DNA from: Candidatus Eiseniibacteriota bacterium
GTDB taxonomy: Bacteria > Eisenbacteria > RBG-16-71-46
Assembly: GCA_963707915.1 (NCBI GenBank)
Contig: OY970178.1
Span: 2,848,001 to 2,912,000 of the forward strand
DNA length: 64,000 nucleotides
Direction: 5' to 3'
In this document: one piece after another, positions 49,914-62,631 of the stretch
How the letters are laid out: each line of letters starts with the position of its first letter
Numbering within the stretch: position 1 is the stretch's first letter
Notes under the pieces: generated by a model
Databases searched by the model: none
What the model saw: only the letters and a program-made list of their open reading frames with translations
Told to the model about the DNA's origin: nothing
Translations under genes and position numbers: made by a program

Positions 49914-50855
49914 TCAGTCCGCCAGCGCGCCGCCCGCGGCGTGCACCAGCGCCACGAACACGTCCTCGAGCGAGGGCTCGACCACCTCGAGCCCGTGGAC
50001 CGCGATGCCCCGGGCGGCGAGCAGCGCCGGCAGCGCCGTGCGCGCCCGGTCCGCGTCGCGCACCGTGACGTGCACGGCGCGGCCGAAGAGCCCGACGTCG
50101 ACCACGCCCTCGGCGCCCTCCAGCGCCTCCACCGCCCGCGGGCTCTCGTCGGTCGCGATCTCGACCAGCGGCGTGGGCATCGCGGCGCGCAGCGCGGCGG
50201 GCCGGTCGAGGGCGATGATGCGCCCGCGGTTCATGAGCGCCAGCCGGTGGCAGTACTCGGCCTCCTCCATGTAGTGCGTGCTCACGAACACCGTGGTGCC
50301 GCGCTCCGCCAGCCCGCCGATCAGGTCCCAGAAGTCGCGCCGCGAGATCGGGTCCACGCCGGAGGTGGGCTCGTCGAGGAAGAGCACCGGCGGCTCGTGG
50401 AGCATGGCGGTGCCGAGCGCGAGCCGCTGCTTCCAGCCCAGCGAGAGCTCCTGCGTCAGCCGGCCGCGGTGGCCCTCCAGGCCCGCCATCCCGAGCACCC
50501 AGTCGCGGCGCTCCGCGCGGCGCGCGCGGGGCACGCCGTAGAGCCCGGCGAAGAAGGCGATGTTCTCCTCCACCGTGAGGTCGCCGTAGAGCGAGAACGA
50601 CTGCGACATGTAGCCGATGCTGCGCTTCACCGACTCGGTCTGGCGCGCGAGGTCGAAGCCGGCGACCGTGCCGCGGCCCGACGTGGGCTGGAGCAGGCCG
50701 GTGAGCATCTTGATGGTCGTGGTCTTGCCCGCGCCGTTGGGGCCGAGGAAGCCGAACACCTCGCCGCGGGCGACCTCGAAGGAGACCTCGTCCACGGCGG
50801 TGAACGCGCCGAAGCGGCGCGTCAGGCGCTCGACCGCGACCGCCGCGCCGCTCAC
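49914..50855 (-). CDS. ABC transporter ATP-binding protein
   Basis: GPNGAGKTT, LSLGWKQR and FLDEPTSG motifs. Confidence 0.92.
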   Translation of the reverse strand: MSGAAVAVERLTRRFGAFTAVDEVSFEVARGEVFGFLGPNGAGKTTTIKMLTGLLQPTSGRGTVAGFDLARQTESVKRSIGYMSQSFSLYGDLTVEENIAFFAGLYGVPRARRAERRDWVLGMAGLEGHRGRLTQELSLGWKQRLALGTAMLHEPPVLFLDEPTSGVDPISRRDFWDLIGGLAERGTTVFVSTHYMEEAEYCHRLALMNRGRIIALDRPAALRAAMPTPLVEIATDESPRAVEALEGAEGVVDVGLFGRAVHVTVRDADRARTALPALLAARGIAVHGLEVVEPSLEDVFVALVHAAGGALAD

Positions 50856-51835
50856 GACGGCCCCGCGCGGGCGATGCGCTCGATGAAGACGTCCTCGAGC
50901 GACGGCGCGACCGGGCTCACCTCGCCCACGGTGAAGCCCGCCGCGCGCAGGCCGGCCGCGACGCGCGGTCCGTCCGCGGCGGCGTCGGCCACCACGACGT
51001 GCAGCCGGTCGCCGAAGACCGCGGCGCCGCGCACGCCGGGCAGGGCGCAGGCCGCGGCGCGCGCCGCGTGCACGCGGTCCACCGGGACGGCGAGCAGTCC
51101 GAGCCCGAAGCCGCGTTGCAGCCGCTCGGCCGAGTCGAGCGCCACCAGCCGGCCGCGGTCGAGCATGGCCAGCCGGTCGAAGCGCTCGGCCTCGTCCATG
51201 TAGGCGGTGCTCACCACCACGGTGGTGCCGTTCGCCACCATCTCGTGCACGATGAGCCAGAGGTCGCGCCGCGAGATCGGGTCCACGCCGAAGGTGGGCT
51301 CGTCGAGCAGCAGGATCGCCGGCTCGTGGACCAGGCAGCAGGAGAGGGCGAGCTTCTGCTTCATGCCGCCGGAGAGCTGCCCCGCGAGCCGCGACCGGAA
51401 GGGGCCGAGCGCGGAGAAGCGGTAGAGCCGCTCGAGCCGCGCCGGCCGCTCCGCGCGGGGCACATGGTAGAGGTCGGCGTAGAACTCGAGGTTCTCGGCC
51501 ACGGTGAGGTCGCCGTAGAGGCCGAAGCGCTGCGCCATGTAGGCGATCGAGCGCTTCACCCGCTCGGGGTCGCGCGCGACGCTCACGCCCTCGAGCCGCG
51601 CGTCGCCCGCGCTGGGGCGCATCACGCCGGCGAGCATGCGGAGCGTCGTGGTCTTGCCCGCGCCGTCGGGACCGACCAGGCCGAACAACTCGCCGCGCGC
51701 GACGGTGAACGACAGCCCGTCCACCGCGGTGAGCGCGCCGAAGCGGCGCGTGAGGCCGTCCAGTTCGACCGCCGCCGGGCGGTCCGCGGCCGGCGCGCCC
51801 GCGTCCGGCACCGCTGCGGGACCCGCGTCCGTCAC
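50852..51835 (-). CDS. ABC transporter ATP-binding protein
   Basis: GPDGAGKTT, LSGGMKQK and LLDEPT motifs; GTG start overlaps the HlyD stop. Confidence 0.88.
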   Translation of the reverse strand: MTDAGPAAVPDAGAPAADRPAAVELDGLTRRFGALTAVDGLSFTVARGELFGLVGPDGAGKTTTLRMLAGVMRPSAGDARLEGVSVARDPERVKRSIAYMAQRFGLYGDLTVAENLEFYADLYHVPRAERPARLERLYRFSALGPFRSRLAGQLSGGMKQKLALSCCLVHEPAILLLDEPTFGVDPISRRDLWLIVHEMVANGTTVVVSTAYMDEAERFDRLAMLDRGRLVALDSAERLQRGFGLGLLAVPVDRVHAARAAACALPGVRGAAVFGDRLHVVVADAAADGPRVAAGLRAAGFTVGEVSPVAPSLEDVFIERIARAGPS

Positions 51836-52825
51836 TTCGCGAGCGCCAGGCGGACGTCGGCGGGCATGCCGGGCTTGAGCTCGAAGGCCGCGTCGCCGGT
51901 GATGCGCACCTTGACCGCGTAGACCAGCTTCACGCGTTCCTCGCTGGTCTGGACGTTCTTGGGAGTGAACTCCGCCTCGCTGCTGATGTAGACCACCTCG
52001 CCGGGATAGCTGCGGCCCCGGAAGGTGTCCGAGGTGATCGTCGCCGCCTGCTCCGGTCCGGACCGCGCCGATGCGCGCCTCGCTGACGTAGATGCGCACC
52101 CAGCGGTCGGTCCGGTCCATCAGCGAGAGCACCGCGGAGCCCGCGGGCACGATCTCCCCGGGCTCGCGGTGCCGCACGGTGACCACGCCGTCGAAGGGCG
52201 CGCGGATCACCATGTTCGCCAGGACCGCGTCCGCGGCGCGCAGGGCGGCCGCGGCCTGCGCCACCTGGGCGCGCGCGGCCGCGATGCGTTCCCGGCGGGG
52301 CCCGGTCACGACCAGCCGGTGCTGCTCGTCGGCCTGCTCGGCCTGCGCCCGCGCCACGTCGAGCGCGGTCCGGGCCTTGTCGAAGGTCTGCTGGCTGACC
52401 ACGTTGTTGCGGACCAGCTCCTGCGCGCGGTCGAAGTCGCGTTGCGCGTCCGCGAGGCGCTGCCGGGCCGCGTCGTTCCCCGAGCGGGCCTGCGCCACCT
52501 CCTCCGGGCGGGCCCCGCGCAGCAGCTCGTCGAGCTGGGCGCGCGCGGCGTCGAGCAGCGCGGCCGCCTGCTGGCGGCGCGCCGCGGCCTCGGCCCGGTC
52601 GAGCGCGGCCAGCGGCTCGCCGGCCCGCGCCGCGTCACCCTCGCGCACGCGGATCGAGTCGATCCGCCCGGGGACCTGGAAGCCCAGCTGCGCCTCGGTC
52701 GCCTCCACCGTGCCCGAGGCCGTGAGCCGGCCGCGCTCGCCGGCGCGGCGCAGGATCGGCACGACGACCAGCGCGGCGATCACGAGGAGCAGCAGCGGGA
52801 CGATGACGCGTGGGTTGGGTCTCAT
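51832..52825 (-). CDS. HlyD-family membrane fusion protein (YbhG-like); frameshift near 52051
   Basis: SGTVEATE, VREGD and IRAPFDG motifs; the tail EAEFTPKNVQT...KPGMPADV lies in the next frame and stops at 51832. Confidence 0.87.
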
Positions 52826-57932: not shown

Positions 57933-59285
57933 ATGGGTGATTCCAGCAAGACCCGCGTCATCATCATGGGAGCCGCCGGCCGGGACTTCCACAATTTCAA
58001 CGTCTACTGGAAGCAGCGTACGGACGTGGAAGTCGTGTGCTTCACCGCGGCGCAGATCCCCGACATCGCCGGCCGCGTCTACCCGCCGGTGCTGGCCGGC
58101 CCGCGGTACCCGCAGGGCATCCCGATCCACGCCGAGGACCAACTCGACGACCTGATCCGCGAGCACCGCGTCGACCTGGTGACCTTCTCCTACTCCGACG
58201 TGTCGCACGAGAATCTCATGCACCAGGCCTGCCGGGTGAACGCGGCGGGGGCGCAGTTCTCGCTGCTGGGCGCCGCCCAGACCATGATCGAGAGCACCCG
58301 GCCGGTCATCGCGGTGGGCGCCGTGCGCACCGGCTGCGGCAAGAGCCAGACCTCTCGACGTGTCGCCGAGATCCTCAAGGGCATGGGCAAGAAGGTGGCG
58401 GTGGTGCGGCACCCGATGCCCTACGGCGACCTCGCCCGGCAGGCGGTGCAGTGTTTCGCCAGCGTCGCCGACATGGACGCGGCCGAGTGCACCATCGAGG
58501 AGCGCGAGGAGTACGAGCCGCACACCGCGATGGGCAACCTGGTCTTCGCGGGGGTGGACTACGAGGCCATCCTGCGCCGCGCCGAGCAGGAGGCCGACGT
58601 GATCCTGTGGGACGGCGGCAACAACGACACGCCGTTCTACCGCCCCGACCTCAACATCGTGGTGGCCGACCCGCACCGCCCCGGCCACGAGCTGCGGTAC
58701 TACCCGGGCGAGACCAACGTGCGCATGGCCGACATCGTCGTGATCAACAAGGTGGACACCGCGGACCCGGAGGCCATCCAGACGGTCGAGGCGAACGTGC
58801 GCGCGCTGAATCCGAAGGCGATCGTCCTGCGGGCCAACTCCCCGGTCACGGTGGAACAGCCCGAGTCGGTCAAGGGCAAGCGCGTGCTGGTGATCGAGGA
58901 CGGGCCGACGCTCACCCACGGCGAGATGCGTTACGGCGCCGGCCTGGTCGCCGCGCACAAGCTGCAGGCCGGCGAGATCGTGGACCCGCGGCCGTACGCG
59001 CAGGGCTCCATCCGGCAGGTGTTCGAGAAGTACTCGCACCTCACCCAGATCCTGCCGGCCATGGGCTACGGCGAGCGGCAGATCGCCGAGCTCTCGGCCA
59101 CCATCGCCGCGGTCCCGTGCGACCTGGTGCTGATCGCCACGCCCATCGACCTGCGGCACGTCCTCACCATCGACAAGCCCTCGACGCGCGTGATGTACGA
59201 GCTCGAGGAACACGACCGGACCGTCCTGCCGCGCGCCATCGCGAAGGTCCTGGCGGTGCAGAAGGGAGCCACGCCCCATGCCTAA
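57933..59285 (+). CDS. arcE: ArcE-like arginine synthetase / cyclic 2,3-diphosphoglycerate synthetase-like P-loop protein (COG2403)
   Basis: IMGAAGRDFHNFN, AVRTGCGKS P-loop, RHPMPYG, TIEEREEYE, WDGGNND, EDGPTLTHG and PAMGY motifs; overlaps the OTC gene. Confidence 0.75.
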   Translation: MGDSSKTRVIIMGAAGRDFHNFNVYWKQRTDVEVVCFTAAQIPDIAGRVYPPVLAGPRYPQGIPIHAEDQLDDLIREHRVDLVTFSYSDVSHENLMHQACRVNAAGAQFSLLGAAQTMIESTRPVIAVGAVRTGCGKSQTSRRVAEILKGMGKKVAVVRHPMPYGDLARQAVQCFASVADMDAAECTIEEREEYEPHTAMGNLVFAGVDYEAILRRAEQEADVILWDGGNNDTPFYRPDLNIVVADPHRPGHELRYYPGETNVRMADIVVINKVDTADPEAIQTVEANVRALNPKAIVLRANSPVTVEQPESVKGKRVLVIEDGPTLTHGEMRYGAGLVAAHKLQAGEIVDPRPYAQGSIRQVFEKYSHLTQILPAMGYGERQIAELSATIAAVPCDLVLIATPIDLRHVLTIDKPSTRVMYELEEHDRTVLPRAIAKVLAVQKGATPHA

Positions 59286-60204
59286 CCCGAGCTATCTCTC
59301 GGTCAAGGACCTCACGGCGGCCCGGACGCTGGAGGTCCTGGAGCTCGCCGCCCGTCTCAAGCGGGAGGTCAAGGCCGGCATTCCGCACCCGCGGCTCGCC
59401 GGCAAGACCCTGGCGATGATCTTCCAGAAGCCCTCGCTGCGGACGCGCGTCTCGTTCGAGGTCGGGATGACGCAGCTCGGGGGGCACGCCATCTACCTCG
59501 GGCCCTCCGACATCAAGCTGGGCGAGCGCGAGACGGTGGAGGACATCGCCCTGACGATCTCGCGCATGTGCGACGTGATCATGGCGCGCGTGTTCGGGCA
59601 CGACAGCGTGGCGGGGCTGGCCCGGCACGCCACGGTGCCGGTCATCAACGCGCTCTCGGACCGCGAGCACCCGTGCCAGATCCTCGCCGACCTGCAGACC
59701 ATCCAGGAGCGCAAGGGCCGCTTCGAGGGGATCAAGGCCGTGTTCGTGGGGGACGGCAACAACGTGGCCCAGTCGTTCCTCTACGGCGGCGCCCTGCTGG
59801 GGATGAGCGTCACGGTGGCCTGCCCGGCGGGCTACGAGCCGCTGGCGGAGATCGTGGCGGACGCGAAGGCCATGGGGGCGCGGACCGGGGCGGCGATCGC
59901 CGTCTCGAACGACCTGGCGGGCGCCTGCCGCGGCGCCGACGTGCTCTACACCGACGTCTGGGCCAGCATGGGACAGGAGGCGGAGGCCGCGAAGCGGAAG
60001 CACGACTTCAGCGGCTGGCAGATCGACGCCGCGCTCCTGGCGGTGGCGAAGCCCGACGCGACCATCCTGCATTGTCTCCCCGCGCACTACGGCGAGGAGA
60101 TCGACTACGCCGCCTCGCGCACGGCCCACTCGGCCATCTTCGACCAGGCCGAGAACCGGCTGCACGCGCAGAAGGCGCTGATGCTGTACCTGATGGGTGC
60201 CTGA
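59278..60204 (+). CDS. argF: Ornithine carbamoyltransferase
   Basis: KPSLRTR carbamoyl-phosphate site, HPCQ, GDGNN, DVWASMG, HCLP and AENRLH motifs. Confidence 0.92.
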   Translation: MPNPSYLSVKDLTAARTLEVLELAARLKREVKAGIPHPRLAGKTLAMIFQKPSLRTRVSFEVGMTQLGGHAIYLGPSDIKLGERETVEDIALTISRMCDVIMARVFGHDSVAGLARHATVPVINALSDREHPCQILADLQTIQERKGRFEGIKAVFVGDGNNVAQSFLYGGALLGMSVTVACPAGYEPLAEIVADAKAMGARTGAAIAVSNDLAGACRGADVLYTDVWASMGQEAEAAKRKHDFSGWQIDAALLAVAKPDATILHCLPAHYGEEIDYAASRTAHSAIFDQAENRLHAQKALMLYLMGA

Positions 60205-60226: not shown

Positions 60227-61081
60227 ATGAATGATCGGACGGGACCGGACGGGACGGCGGCGACGCTGCGCGGCGTCGCGGCGATCGTGATCGTGGGCGT
60301 GGCGCTGGGCCTGGCGTTCAACGCGCTGGGCCTGGCGAGCAAGCCGCCGCGCGGGCTGTCGTGGATCACGCAGCCGGAGAGGATGCCGAGCCTCGAGGAG
60401 CTGCAGCCCGGCTCCCTGCTGGCGCCGCCGCCCGCGGCCCGGCCGCCGTCGGCGCCCGGGCTCTCGCTGGTGGGGACCGCCTGGGCGGGCGGGGTCGCGC
60501 CGCCCGCCGCCGCGCGCGACACGGTCCGCGCCGCGCCGGGCAAGCCGGCCGGGTCCGTGGCGAAGAAGCCGGCGGCGAGGAAGGCGCCGGCGCGGAGGGT
60601 CCCCGTCACGGCGGTGAAGAAGCCGGTGCCGGTGCCGGCGTCCGTGACGAAGGTCCCTGCGACGGTGCCCGGCGCCGTCGTCGCGCCGGTCGTGACGAAG
60701 GCGGACCTGCCGGTGGTCCCGGACCTGGACCAGCCAATCGAAGTGAAGCTCGCGAACGTGAAGAAGTTCTTCGACGCCGGCGCGGCGGTCTTCGTGGATG
60801 CGCGCGAGGCCCCGGAGTACGCCGAGGGGCACATCGCCGGCGCCCTGAGCGTGCCCTTCGACGACGCGGTGAGGAACCCGGCCCTGCTCGAGCCGTTCAA
60901 GCGGGCGGGCAAGCCGCTCATCCTCTACTGCAGCGGCGGCGACTGCGAGCTCTCGAAGGACCTGGCCAGGAACATGCTGGCGGACGGCATCCGCAAGGTG
61001 CTGGTCTTCACCGACGGCATGCCCGCCTGGAAGGCGGCCGGCTACCCGACGGAGACGGGGCCGGCGAAGGTGGCGCGGTGA
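60227..61081 (+). CDS. Membrane-anchored rhodanese-domain protein
   Basis: N-terminal TM, Pro/Lys/Ala linker, VDAR...YAEGHIAGA, YCSGGDC and GMPAW motifs. Confidence 0.85.
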   Translation: MNDRTGPDGTAATLRGVAAIVIVGVALGLAFNALGLASKPPRGLSWITQPERMPSLEELQPGSLLAPPPAARPPSAPGLSLVGTAWAGGVAPPAAARDTVRAAPGKPAGSVAKKPAARKAPARRVPVTAVKKPVPVPASVTKVPATVPGAVVAPVVTKADLPVVPDLDQPIEVKLANVKKFFDAGAAVFVDAREAPEYAEGHIAGALSVPFDDAVRNPALLEPFKRAGKPLILYCSGGDCELSKDLARNMLADGIRKVLVFTDGMPAWKAAGYPTETGPAKVAR

Positions 61082-61497
61082 GCGGCGTGCTGACCGGCAC
61101 CCCGGTGCGCCGCGGCGCGCAGATCGTGCTGGGGGCGCTGTTCCTGGTGGCGGCGCTCGCCAAGATCGTGGACGTCGCGAGCCTGGCGCGGGAGGTCCAC
61201 AACTTCCGCATCGTGCCGTTCTGGTCCGAGCACCTGGTGGCGATGACCCTGCCGTGGGTCGAGTTGGTGGCCGGTCTCGCGCTGGTGCTGGGCATCCGGC
61301 CCCGCGCGGGCGCCTGGGTGGCCGGGGTGCTGCTCGCGGGCTTCACGGTCGGCGTCGCCCTGGCCATGGCGCGCGGCCTCAACTTCCACTGCGGATGCTT
61401 CGGCACCGCGGACGCCACGCGTATCGGCTGGTCCAAGCTGGGCGAGAACCTCGGGATGCTCGCGCTGGCGGTGGTGGGGTCGCTCGGGCGGAAGTAG
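61078..61497 (+). CDS. DoxX/MauE-family membrane protein
   Basis: LFLVAALAKI, LPWVEL and CGCFG motifs; GTGA overlap with the rhodanese gene. Confidence 0.85.
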   Translation: MSGVLTGTPVRRGAQIVLGALFLVAALAKIVDVASLAREVHNFRIVPFWSEHLVAMTLPWVELVAGLALVLGIRPRAGAWVAGVLLAGFTVGVALAMARGLNFHCGCFGTADATRIGWSKLGENLGMLALAVVGSLGRK

Positions 61498-61632: not shown

Positions 61633-62631
61633 TCAGTACGTCTTCGCGCCCGCCTTCACCACCCGGGCCAGAGCCCCCGCCAGCCCCTCGTGCAGCGCCT
61701 TGACCTCCTCGGGCTGCCAGTCCTTGCGGTCCTTGCGCACGAACGTGGTCTTGTCGACGCGGTTGTCGAAGCGGCCCACCGGCAGGTACCAGGAGCGGCC
61801 GTGGGCCTCGATCTTCACCGTGTCGGGGCGGTCCGAGTGCTGGAGCAACCACTCCATGTCGTCGCAGCCGTAGTCGCCGAGCATCACCGCCATCGGCACG
61901 CCGTGGTGCAGGATCGAGCCCGGGTCGTTGGGGTCGGTGCGTTCGATGTTCTTGCGGCGCGACTCCTCCGGCGCGACCCAGACGTAGAGCACCGAGGCGC
62001 GCGCGAGGATCTCCTCGGAGAGCACGGCGAACGAGTACCGGTAGCCGAGCGGCGCCGGCAGGGGCATCGCGGACTTGTCCGGGCCGCCGCGCGCGAACTC
62101 GATCACCACGGTGCGGCCCTGGAGCGAGTCGGGGATGCCGGCGTTCTTCTCGCGCAGCAACTCGGCGCACTCGGCTTCGAGCGCCTCGACCAGCTCGCCG
62201 CGCACGGCGGGATCGAGCTGGCCGAGCGCCGGACGCGCGCCGACCTTGCGGCGCGCGGCGTCGAAGCGGTCCAGCAGCCACTCGGCGGCCGGGCACCCGC
62301 TGGAGGCGGGGCGCGGGGCCGGGCGGTGCCGCTGGACGAGGTCGTCGAAGTCCTCGTTCAGCAGCTCCATCAGCGTCCCCCAGTCGCGCTGCTCCTTCAT
62401 CGGCAGCTCGTCGGAGTCGAAGAACAGCCCGTCCTGGCCGCGCTTGCGCAGCTCCTGGCTGATGCGCCGCATCATGTGGACGTAGGGGTAGTCGTCGAGC
62501 TGGACGGTGGGTCCCACGTGCATCTCGTCGCGACACTGCTCGGGGGTGAGGCCCGCGAGGTAGCGACGGACTTCCGACTTGCCCGAGGCGGGCAGGGCCG
62601 TGAGCAGCAGGACGTCGATCAGGCTGGACAT
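61633..62631 (-). CDS. Uncharacterised P-loop NTPase/kinase-like protein
   Basis: N-terminal beta strand plus Walker-A-like LLLTALPASGKSE; QLDDYPY; VVIEFARG; LYVWV.PEESRRKN lid-like motif. Confidence 0.7.
   Translation of the reverse strand: MSSLIDVLLLTALPASGKSEVRRYLAGLTPEQCRDEMHVGPTVQLDDYPYVHMMRRISQELRKRGQDGLFFDSDELPMKEQRDWGTLMELLNEDFDDLVQRHRPAPRPASSGCPAAEWLLDRFDAARRKVGARPALGQLDPAVRGELVEALEAECAELLREKNAGIPDSLQGRTVVIEFARGGPDKSAMPLPAPLGYRYSFAVLSEEILARASVLYVWVAPEESRRKNIERTDPNDPGSILHHGVPMAVMLGDYGCDDMEWLLQHSDRPDTVKIEAHGRSWYLPVGRFDNRVDKTTFVRKDRKDWQPEEVKALHEGLAGALARVVKAGAKTY

Follow-up and report, generated by a model that had tools for sequence, protein, structure and literature searches.

The window, a stretch of 64,000 nt (C1:2848001-2912000) from a Candidatus Eiseniibacteriota genome assembled as one contig (C1) of 3.62 Mb and 94.8% complete, contains a gene pair for a predicted orthologue of the arginine synthetase ArcE and an ornithine transcarbamylase (OTC), in a genome that has lost its carbamoyl phosphate synthetase (CPS; carAB) and has kept argG and argH. 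ArcE-OTC probably works in the catabolic direction, giving ATP, ornithine and carbamoyl phosphate (CP), with the CP shared among carbamate kinase (CK), PyrB and HypF. In this process, ArcE would convert arginine, ADP and Pi to citrulline, NH3 and ATP, OTC would turn citrulline into ornithine and CP, and the CP would pass to the distant CK (yielding a second ATP), to PyrB and to the hydrogenase maturase HypF. Chemically, P-loop-bound ATP may phosphorylate the ureido oxygen of citrulline and ammonia may displace the phosphate, and this reaction would here be run in reverse. The ArcE reaction and its CP-supply role are taken from Thermococcus kodakarensis, and we infer the chemistry, the direction in this organism and the share of CP that derives from arginine. 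Since the arginine-making genes are kept and CPS is missing, the pair likely also helps to supply CP for nucleotides.

The preliminary description of this DNA had pointed to a P-loop gene with the motifs GAAGRDFHNFN and RTGCGKS that shares 8 nt with an overlapping OTC gene, and both ORFs were confirmed (Table 1), with the motifs at residues 13-23 and 132-138 of the 450-aa P-loop protein. It had also seen no CK or ADI (arginine deiminase) gene next to the pair, which is borne out, the CK gene being located elsewhere in the genome. OTC lies directly 3' of arcE in all same-genus genomes (7 of 7), so the linkage is not due to chance. A promoter and terminator scan found nothing. Beyond this group lies a 332-aa P-loop protein without any Pfam or NCBIfam family, whose atlas clusters are named "hypothetical". 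It occurs in 5 of 246 loci, near arcE-OTC in four of them (this genome, G004, L106 and G019) and adjoining the argF of an arg operon in the fifth (G016), and a link to arginine metabolism is possible. Elsewhere in the window, an efflux membrane-fusion gene shifts out of frame into the frame of an ABC ATPase; the G004 copy of this region aligns as separate frames, and the disruption is probably another assembly indel.

Table 1. Features of the arcE-OTC locus and of other loci discussed in the text (window positions, or contig positions where C1 is given)
Feature	Position	Strand	Remark
arcE, candidate arginine synthetase (ATP-forming arginine deiminase), 450 aa	57933..59285	+	63% identity to Thermococcus-type ArcE
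OTC (ArcB/ArgF), 308 aa	59278..60204	+	NCBIfam models over cut-off
Overlap of arcE end and OTC start, 8 nt	59278..59285	+	putative translational coupling
Membrane-anchored rhodanese-domain protein	60227..61081	+	probably co-transcribed with arcE-OTC
MauE/DoxX-family membrane protein	61078..61497	+	overlaps rhodanese gene; probably transcript end
332-aa P-loop protein	61633-62631	-	
Efflux membrane-fusion gene and ABC ATPase	50852-52825	-	out of frame
arcC (carbamate kinase)	C1:1655253-1656213		one frameshift; 1.25 Mb from arcE, within yge-like cluster
yge-like cluster	C1:1650003-1660838		
allF/allG/allH-like genes	C1:2181132-2185868		
Second pyr operon	C1:2216509-2222243		
arg operon	C1:2638608-2646859		
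argH with fused domain	C1:2639882-2641846		

No NCBIfam family matched the 450-aa protein, and its Pfam result was a weak cobW match only. For the identity test, a metagenomic Thermococcus-type sequence (L212) served as a stand-in for T. kodakarensis ArcE (TK2200), chosen by its agreement with the TK2200 cloning primers given in the supplement of PMC11032458. No exact match to these primers was found in the metagenomes, and a degenerate pattern of the forward primer retrieved 8 metagenomic loci, 5 of them with a full-length gene. By eye, the gene starts of L212 and L216 are 1-2 bases off the forward primer, and their ends match the reverse primer bar one added codon before the stop; because of this agreement, both were taken to be ArcE of the Thermococcus type. 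Between the window protein and L212, 265 of 424 positions are identical (63%; 582 bits), and tested against this stand-in the window protein falls far inside the limits used for ArcE homologues of TK2200 in PMC11032458 (BLAST E<1e-100 and >380 aa). The segments AVRTGxGKS, CTIEExEEYE, DGGNND, EDGP and PAMGY are common to the window protein and 15 homologues (4 of Thermococcus type), and in this 16-sequence alignment the P-loop AVRTGCGKS (130-138) and DGGNND (227-232) are invariant or nearly so. By sequence, then, the protein is an ArcE orthologue, which upholds the family assignment of the preliminary description.

It is very improbable that the protein is instead a cyclic 2,3-diphosphoglycerate synthetase (cDPGS) or a GTPase, or that it belongs to the ArcE family but acts on a different guanidino compound. 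Close homologues, mostly from Ca. Eisenbacteria among the named matches listed, are called "predicted GTPase" or "cyclic 2,3-diphosphoglycerate synthase" in databases, an atlas search returned "putative GTPase" clusters only, and only one member of the family has been assayed. However, cDPGS (PDB 8ork, 8oru, 9sxb) is a remote homologue of the same P-loop class, whose solved chains match the window protein over about 113 residues only, at E 2e-5 (4e-10 with a profile), against 582 bits for the Thermococcus-type ArcE; by score, the protein is closer to the latter. This gap and the conserved motifs indicate that the database names are misleading. The gene context also differs from that of cDPGS: the window gene has OTC, rhodanese, MauE and ADH as neighbours, and the recurrent neighbours at the best 80 of at least 591 confirmed arcE loci outside this group are CK, OTC, RocD, PyrB and housekeeping genes. 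A weak second match in G059, considered as a cDPGS outgroup, turned out to be LpxK and was rejected.

The partner gene also argues against these readings, as it scores as an OTC (TIGR00658, 381 bits against a cut-off of 280.85; PRK00779, 414 against 306) and stays below the cut-off of the putrescine carbamoyltransferase model (297 against 500). Its best solved match is 1a1s (325 bits), which we take to be the Pyrococcus furiosus OTC. Four carbamoyltransferase matches exist in the genome (the window OTC, pyrB, a YgeW-like gene and a PyrB-like gene), and the window gene is the only true OTC found among them. A tree of 28 rows places it with the arcE-linked OTCs of relatives (99/99), apart from the two arg-operon copies.

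When the genome was searched for the genes on which the preliminary description had made its readings depend, arcC, argG and argH were found, while arcA (ADI) and carAB were not. Of these results, the loss of carAB is more telling than the ArgG/ArgH question that the description had raised. Family searches and tblastn queries with CarA and CarB of the same genus detected neither carA nor carB. In relatives, the native block runs pyrR-pyrB-pyrC-carA-carB-TPR-pyrK-pyrD (6 loci). In this genome, the continuous sequence after pyrR carries first an EamA-type exporter gene and next the TPR gene, and in G005 pyrR abuts the TPR gene. G001, G004, G006 and G007 keep pyrB and a pyrC-like gene, with the TPR gene 1.4-1.7 kb from pyrB and carAB alone missing, and G003 keeps carAB in place. 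An assembly gap was rejected as the cause on this contiguous synteny, and carAB has truly been lost. The genome also has a second pyr operon, which is divergent and complete and includes pyrI but not carAB; its PyrB is 35-39% identical to that of the family, and it was apparently acquired after the native block was lost. The gene hypF is intact and accompanied by a [NiFe] hydrogenase operon. CPS is therefore absent while pyrB and hypF, both of which use CP, are present, the pattern expected where ArcE/ArcB is a CP source, and the genome needs CP without CPS.

The supply role is known from T. kodakarensis, in which arcE and arcB, not arcC, are reported to supply CP for pyrimidines and hydrogenase (PMC13260591). 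The CPS-less Thermococcales described there (Michimori et al. 2026) likewise have no carAB, yet carry the pyrB pathway and hypF with [NiFe] hydrogenase. They differ in that CPS and argGH are reported as tightly linked, whereas argGH is kept without CPS here, and in that purine-catabolic transcarbamylases offer other CP sources in the present genome. With the ArcE (TK2200)/ArcB/ArcC system of T. kodakarensis (Michimori et al. 2024, PMC11032458), the genome shares a full-length orthologue, OTC and CK in the genome and no ADI found; TK2200, TK0871 and TK2158 are unlinked, and arcC is unlinked here too. That archaeon is described as lacking argG and argH, whereas here the host is bacterial, arcE overlaps OTC and argG and argH are present. 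The lower half of the scheme, OTC phosphorolysis plus CK, is that of the arginine deiminase pathway (ArcA-ArcB-ArcC). Unlike in that pathway, the predicted first step here conserves ATP, no ADI match exists (no PF02274 match in this genome), and no ArcD-type antiporter was identified, only two generic APC permeases.

OTC and CK thus occur in one genome without an ADI match, as expected of the arginine synthetase pathway. The arcC frameshift is one extra base relative to two intact relatives (94-95% nucleotide identity), and arcC is intact and over cut-off in 5 same-genus genomes. Because neighbouring genes are also frameshifted, it is likely an assembly error. The yge-like cluster around arcC comprises two PLP enzymes, PyrB-like and YgeW-like carbamoyltransferases, YgeY-like hydrolases and a class V aminotransferase besides the CK, and has several frameshifts. 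At another position (Table 1), genes similar to allF, allG and allH (oxamate carbamoyltransferase), frameshifted in the assembly, occur together with genes for a cyclase and for a molybdenum hydroxylase.

Other routes to CP may be available in this genome, which carries a YgeW-like gene, a second carbamoyltransferase gene, allFGH-like genes and a CK gene. They raise an alternative that we consider unlikely, in which ArcE is catabolic for ATP only, the CP for pyrimidines, hydrogenase and de novo arginine is drawn from the breakdown of purines and ureides (YgeW-like, AllFGH-like) or from a reversed CK, and the window OTC doubles as the anabolic enzyme. YgeW and AllFGH are reported to yield CP (10.1101/2025.04.24.650524 and PMC11326118, respectively), an anabolic CK is proposed in PMC6022934, the arg operon is selected yet without its own argF, and one carA-negative genome (G093) has pyrB and a CK/ureide cluster with no arcE, ADI or carA match. 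However, CK is reported as unable to replace ArcE/ArcB in T. kodakarensis (PMC13260591), several yge-like and allFGH-like genes are frameshifted in this assembly, and 16 of the 19 other carA-negative genomes of the phylum show the pattern of arginine auxotrophs, without argG. This alternative and the ATP- and CP-giving role that we favour are not exclusive of one another. Counting against the favoured role are the arcC frameshift, the alternative CP-source genes and, as described below, the selection on the arg operon, the lack of matches for an ornithine-consuming enzyme, the two carA-negative genomes that have no arcE, the YgeW-like gene that tracks arcC as well as arcE does, and the weak association of arcE with carA.

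The arginine genes form an argR-argC-argB-argD-argG-argH-argJ operon, and each of its 7 genes is over cut-off in at least one model. The dN/dS, a rough codon count against two relatives that is approximate at 72% GC, is 0.21-0.35 for the arg-operon genes (0.21-0.27 for argG and argH) and 0.14-0.22 for arcE and OTC, and by this measure purifying selection acts on argCBDGHJ. An argF is missing from the operon: OTC stands directly after argH in 2 of the 3 family relatives examined, and argJ occupies this position in the present genome, G001 and G005. The argH gene is C-terminally fused to an N-acetyltransferase domain. In addition, no ornithine cyclodeaminase was found in the genome, nor rocD (the best match, 35%, is argD), nor proB among its 5 PF00696 matches; ProC and ornithine decarboxylase gave no match to motif regexes, which are insensitive.

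The preliminary description had left a choice between an energy-conserving arginine synthetase pathway and a biosynthetic bypass of ArgG/ArgH in which ornithine is turned into citrulline and this into arginine. The former part stands, arcC being present elsewhere in the genome, while the latter is not supported, as argG and argH are intact and over cut-off and carAB was not found. ArcE is reported to be reversible in vitro and to support growth on citrulline and ammonium in vivo, and a biosynthetic ArcE has already been proposed for bacteria with CPS but without argGH (PMC11032458, Discussion). For such a role here speak also that the window OTC is the only OTC in the genome and that argG was found in 2 of 7 same-genus relatives and not in the other 5, with the arg operon absent from a contiguous stretch of G004. 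However, G004 has lost the ornithine genes along with argGH, there is no CPS to feed the route, the equilibrium and the ammonium affinity of ArcE favour breakdown, and the ancestral neighbour of arcE is the catabolic rocD. The genome in fact shows the reverse of the bypass pattern (CPS and ornithine synthesis present, argGH absent), namely argGH present and carAB not found. As the main role, the bypass is largely refuted by intact, selected argGH, and we give it hardly any weight.

Several lines of evidence point instead to the catabolic direction. ArcE is described as arginine-specific, with a Keq of ~10 towards citrulline and a Ks of ~106 mM for ammonium, and where argGH coexist with ArcE, its authors expect ArcE to be catabolic (PMC11032458); the presence of argG and argH here, the equilibrium and the ammonium Ks thus argue for breakdown. 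So does the gene order in the arcE-positive family members outside the genus (n=11), where rocD (ornithine aminotransferase) directly follows arcE in 7 and two OTCs exist in 8, the separate one in the arg operon. In the genus of this genome, the arcE operon has no rocD.

The distribution of the genes supports the pathway. Among 60 relatives, arcE is present in 32 (7 of 7 in the genus) and arcC in 32, with both in 31; arcC is missing in 27 of the 28 arcE-negative relatives, and the mismatches are a 54%-complete genome and G039. Strong ADI matches are found in 4 of the 60. The YgeW-like gene occurs in 27 of the 60, and because every one of them has arcC (27 of 27), arcC is, among these relatives, associated with the ureide cluster no less closely than with arcE. 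At the 80 outside loci (the best 80 of at least 591), where neighbour types were judged by similarity to the genes of this genome rather than by family scan, arcE has a CK gene no more than 5 kb away in 35, an OTC gene in 21 and a RocD-like gene in 11. The co-occurrence in 31 of 32 relatives and the nearby CK in 35 of 80 loci support the arginine synthetase pathway.

The supply of CP is supported by 7 of these 80 loci, all of Acidobacteriota (L141, L143, L153, L154, L156, L168 and L176), in which arcE-OTC-CK-pyrB-rocD form one run; three of the seven pyrB genes were checked and all are over the TIGR00670 cut-off. A similar arrangement, OTC-CK-pyrB-rocD-arcE, was observed at G045:C6:5582-11060, where the arginine synthetase pathway is physically joined to aspartate carbamoyltransferase.

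It is also supported across the phylum (125 genomes, at least 90% completeness), in which arcE is found in 87 and carA in 105, and 18 of the 20 carA-negative genomes have arcE. The association is weak: 36 of the 38 arcE-negative genomes have carA, and carA is absent in 18 of 87 arcE-positive against 2 of 38 arcE-negative genomes (Fisher p 0.034, with kin not independent). ArcE is not required for life without CPS, because 2 of the 20 carA-negative genomes have pyrB and no arcE; these two (G093 and G094) show no carA, arcE, ADI or argG match. Among the 19 other carA-negative genomes, argG is found in 3, so that argGH without CPS occurs in 4 of 20 including this genome.

The one odd feature of this system is that argGH persists although CPS is gone. 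With CP derived from arginine, no arginine can be gained on balance. Because selection nevertheless acts on the arg operon, CP most sensibly comes also from a source other than arginine. Either the operon is used to make ornithine and to salvage citrulline, or CP comes also from the YgeW-like/allFGH-like transcarbamylases or from CK in reverse, with a bidirectional window OTC. A bolder and rather doubtful scenario is that the genus has been caught replacing CPS. In this scenario, carAB and the anabolic argF would have been deleted and the single ArcE-linked OTC would run in both directions: with peptides at hand, arginine would be drained to yield ATP and CP, and without them, arginine would be built de novo via ArgGH from purine-derived or kinase-made CP. 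If true, a bacterium would be prototrophic for arginine and pyrimidines without CPS, and the CPS-argGH linkage of Thermococcales would be broken.

Earlier publications already cover the enzyme, its pathway, its role in CP supply and the hypothesis of a bypass, and bacterial homologues are listed in PMC11032458. The only ArcE assayed in the literature that we found is archaeal and hyperthermophilic, and according to PMC13763154 the reaction is represented by a single curated protein, also archaeal. Our literature search, whose coverage left out most subscription journals, found neither a study of what ArcE does in bacteria nor one of arginine metabolism in Eisenbacteria. What deserves specialist attention is that carAB and argF were lost step by step while argGH stayed. 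The genus offers a natural series, with carAB in place (1 genome), carAB alone missing (4) and the whole native block gone (2), and in this series the CP-supply role known from T. kodakarensis can be studied in a bacterial setting. For the idea of arginine production modelled in PMC13763154, a bacterial ArcE is likewise a candidate donor. Finally, in G003, G045, G052, G054, G057 and G060 both arcE and carA were found with no argG match, and these genomes are candidates for a biosynthetic ArcE.
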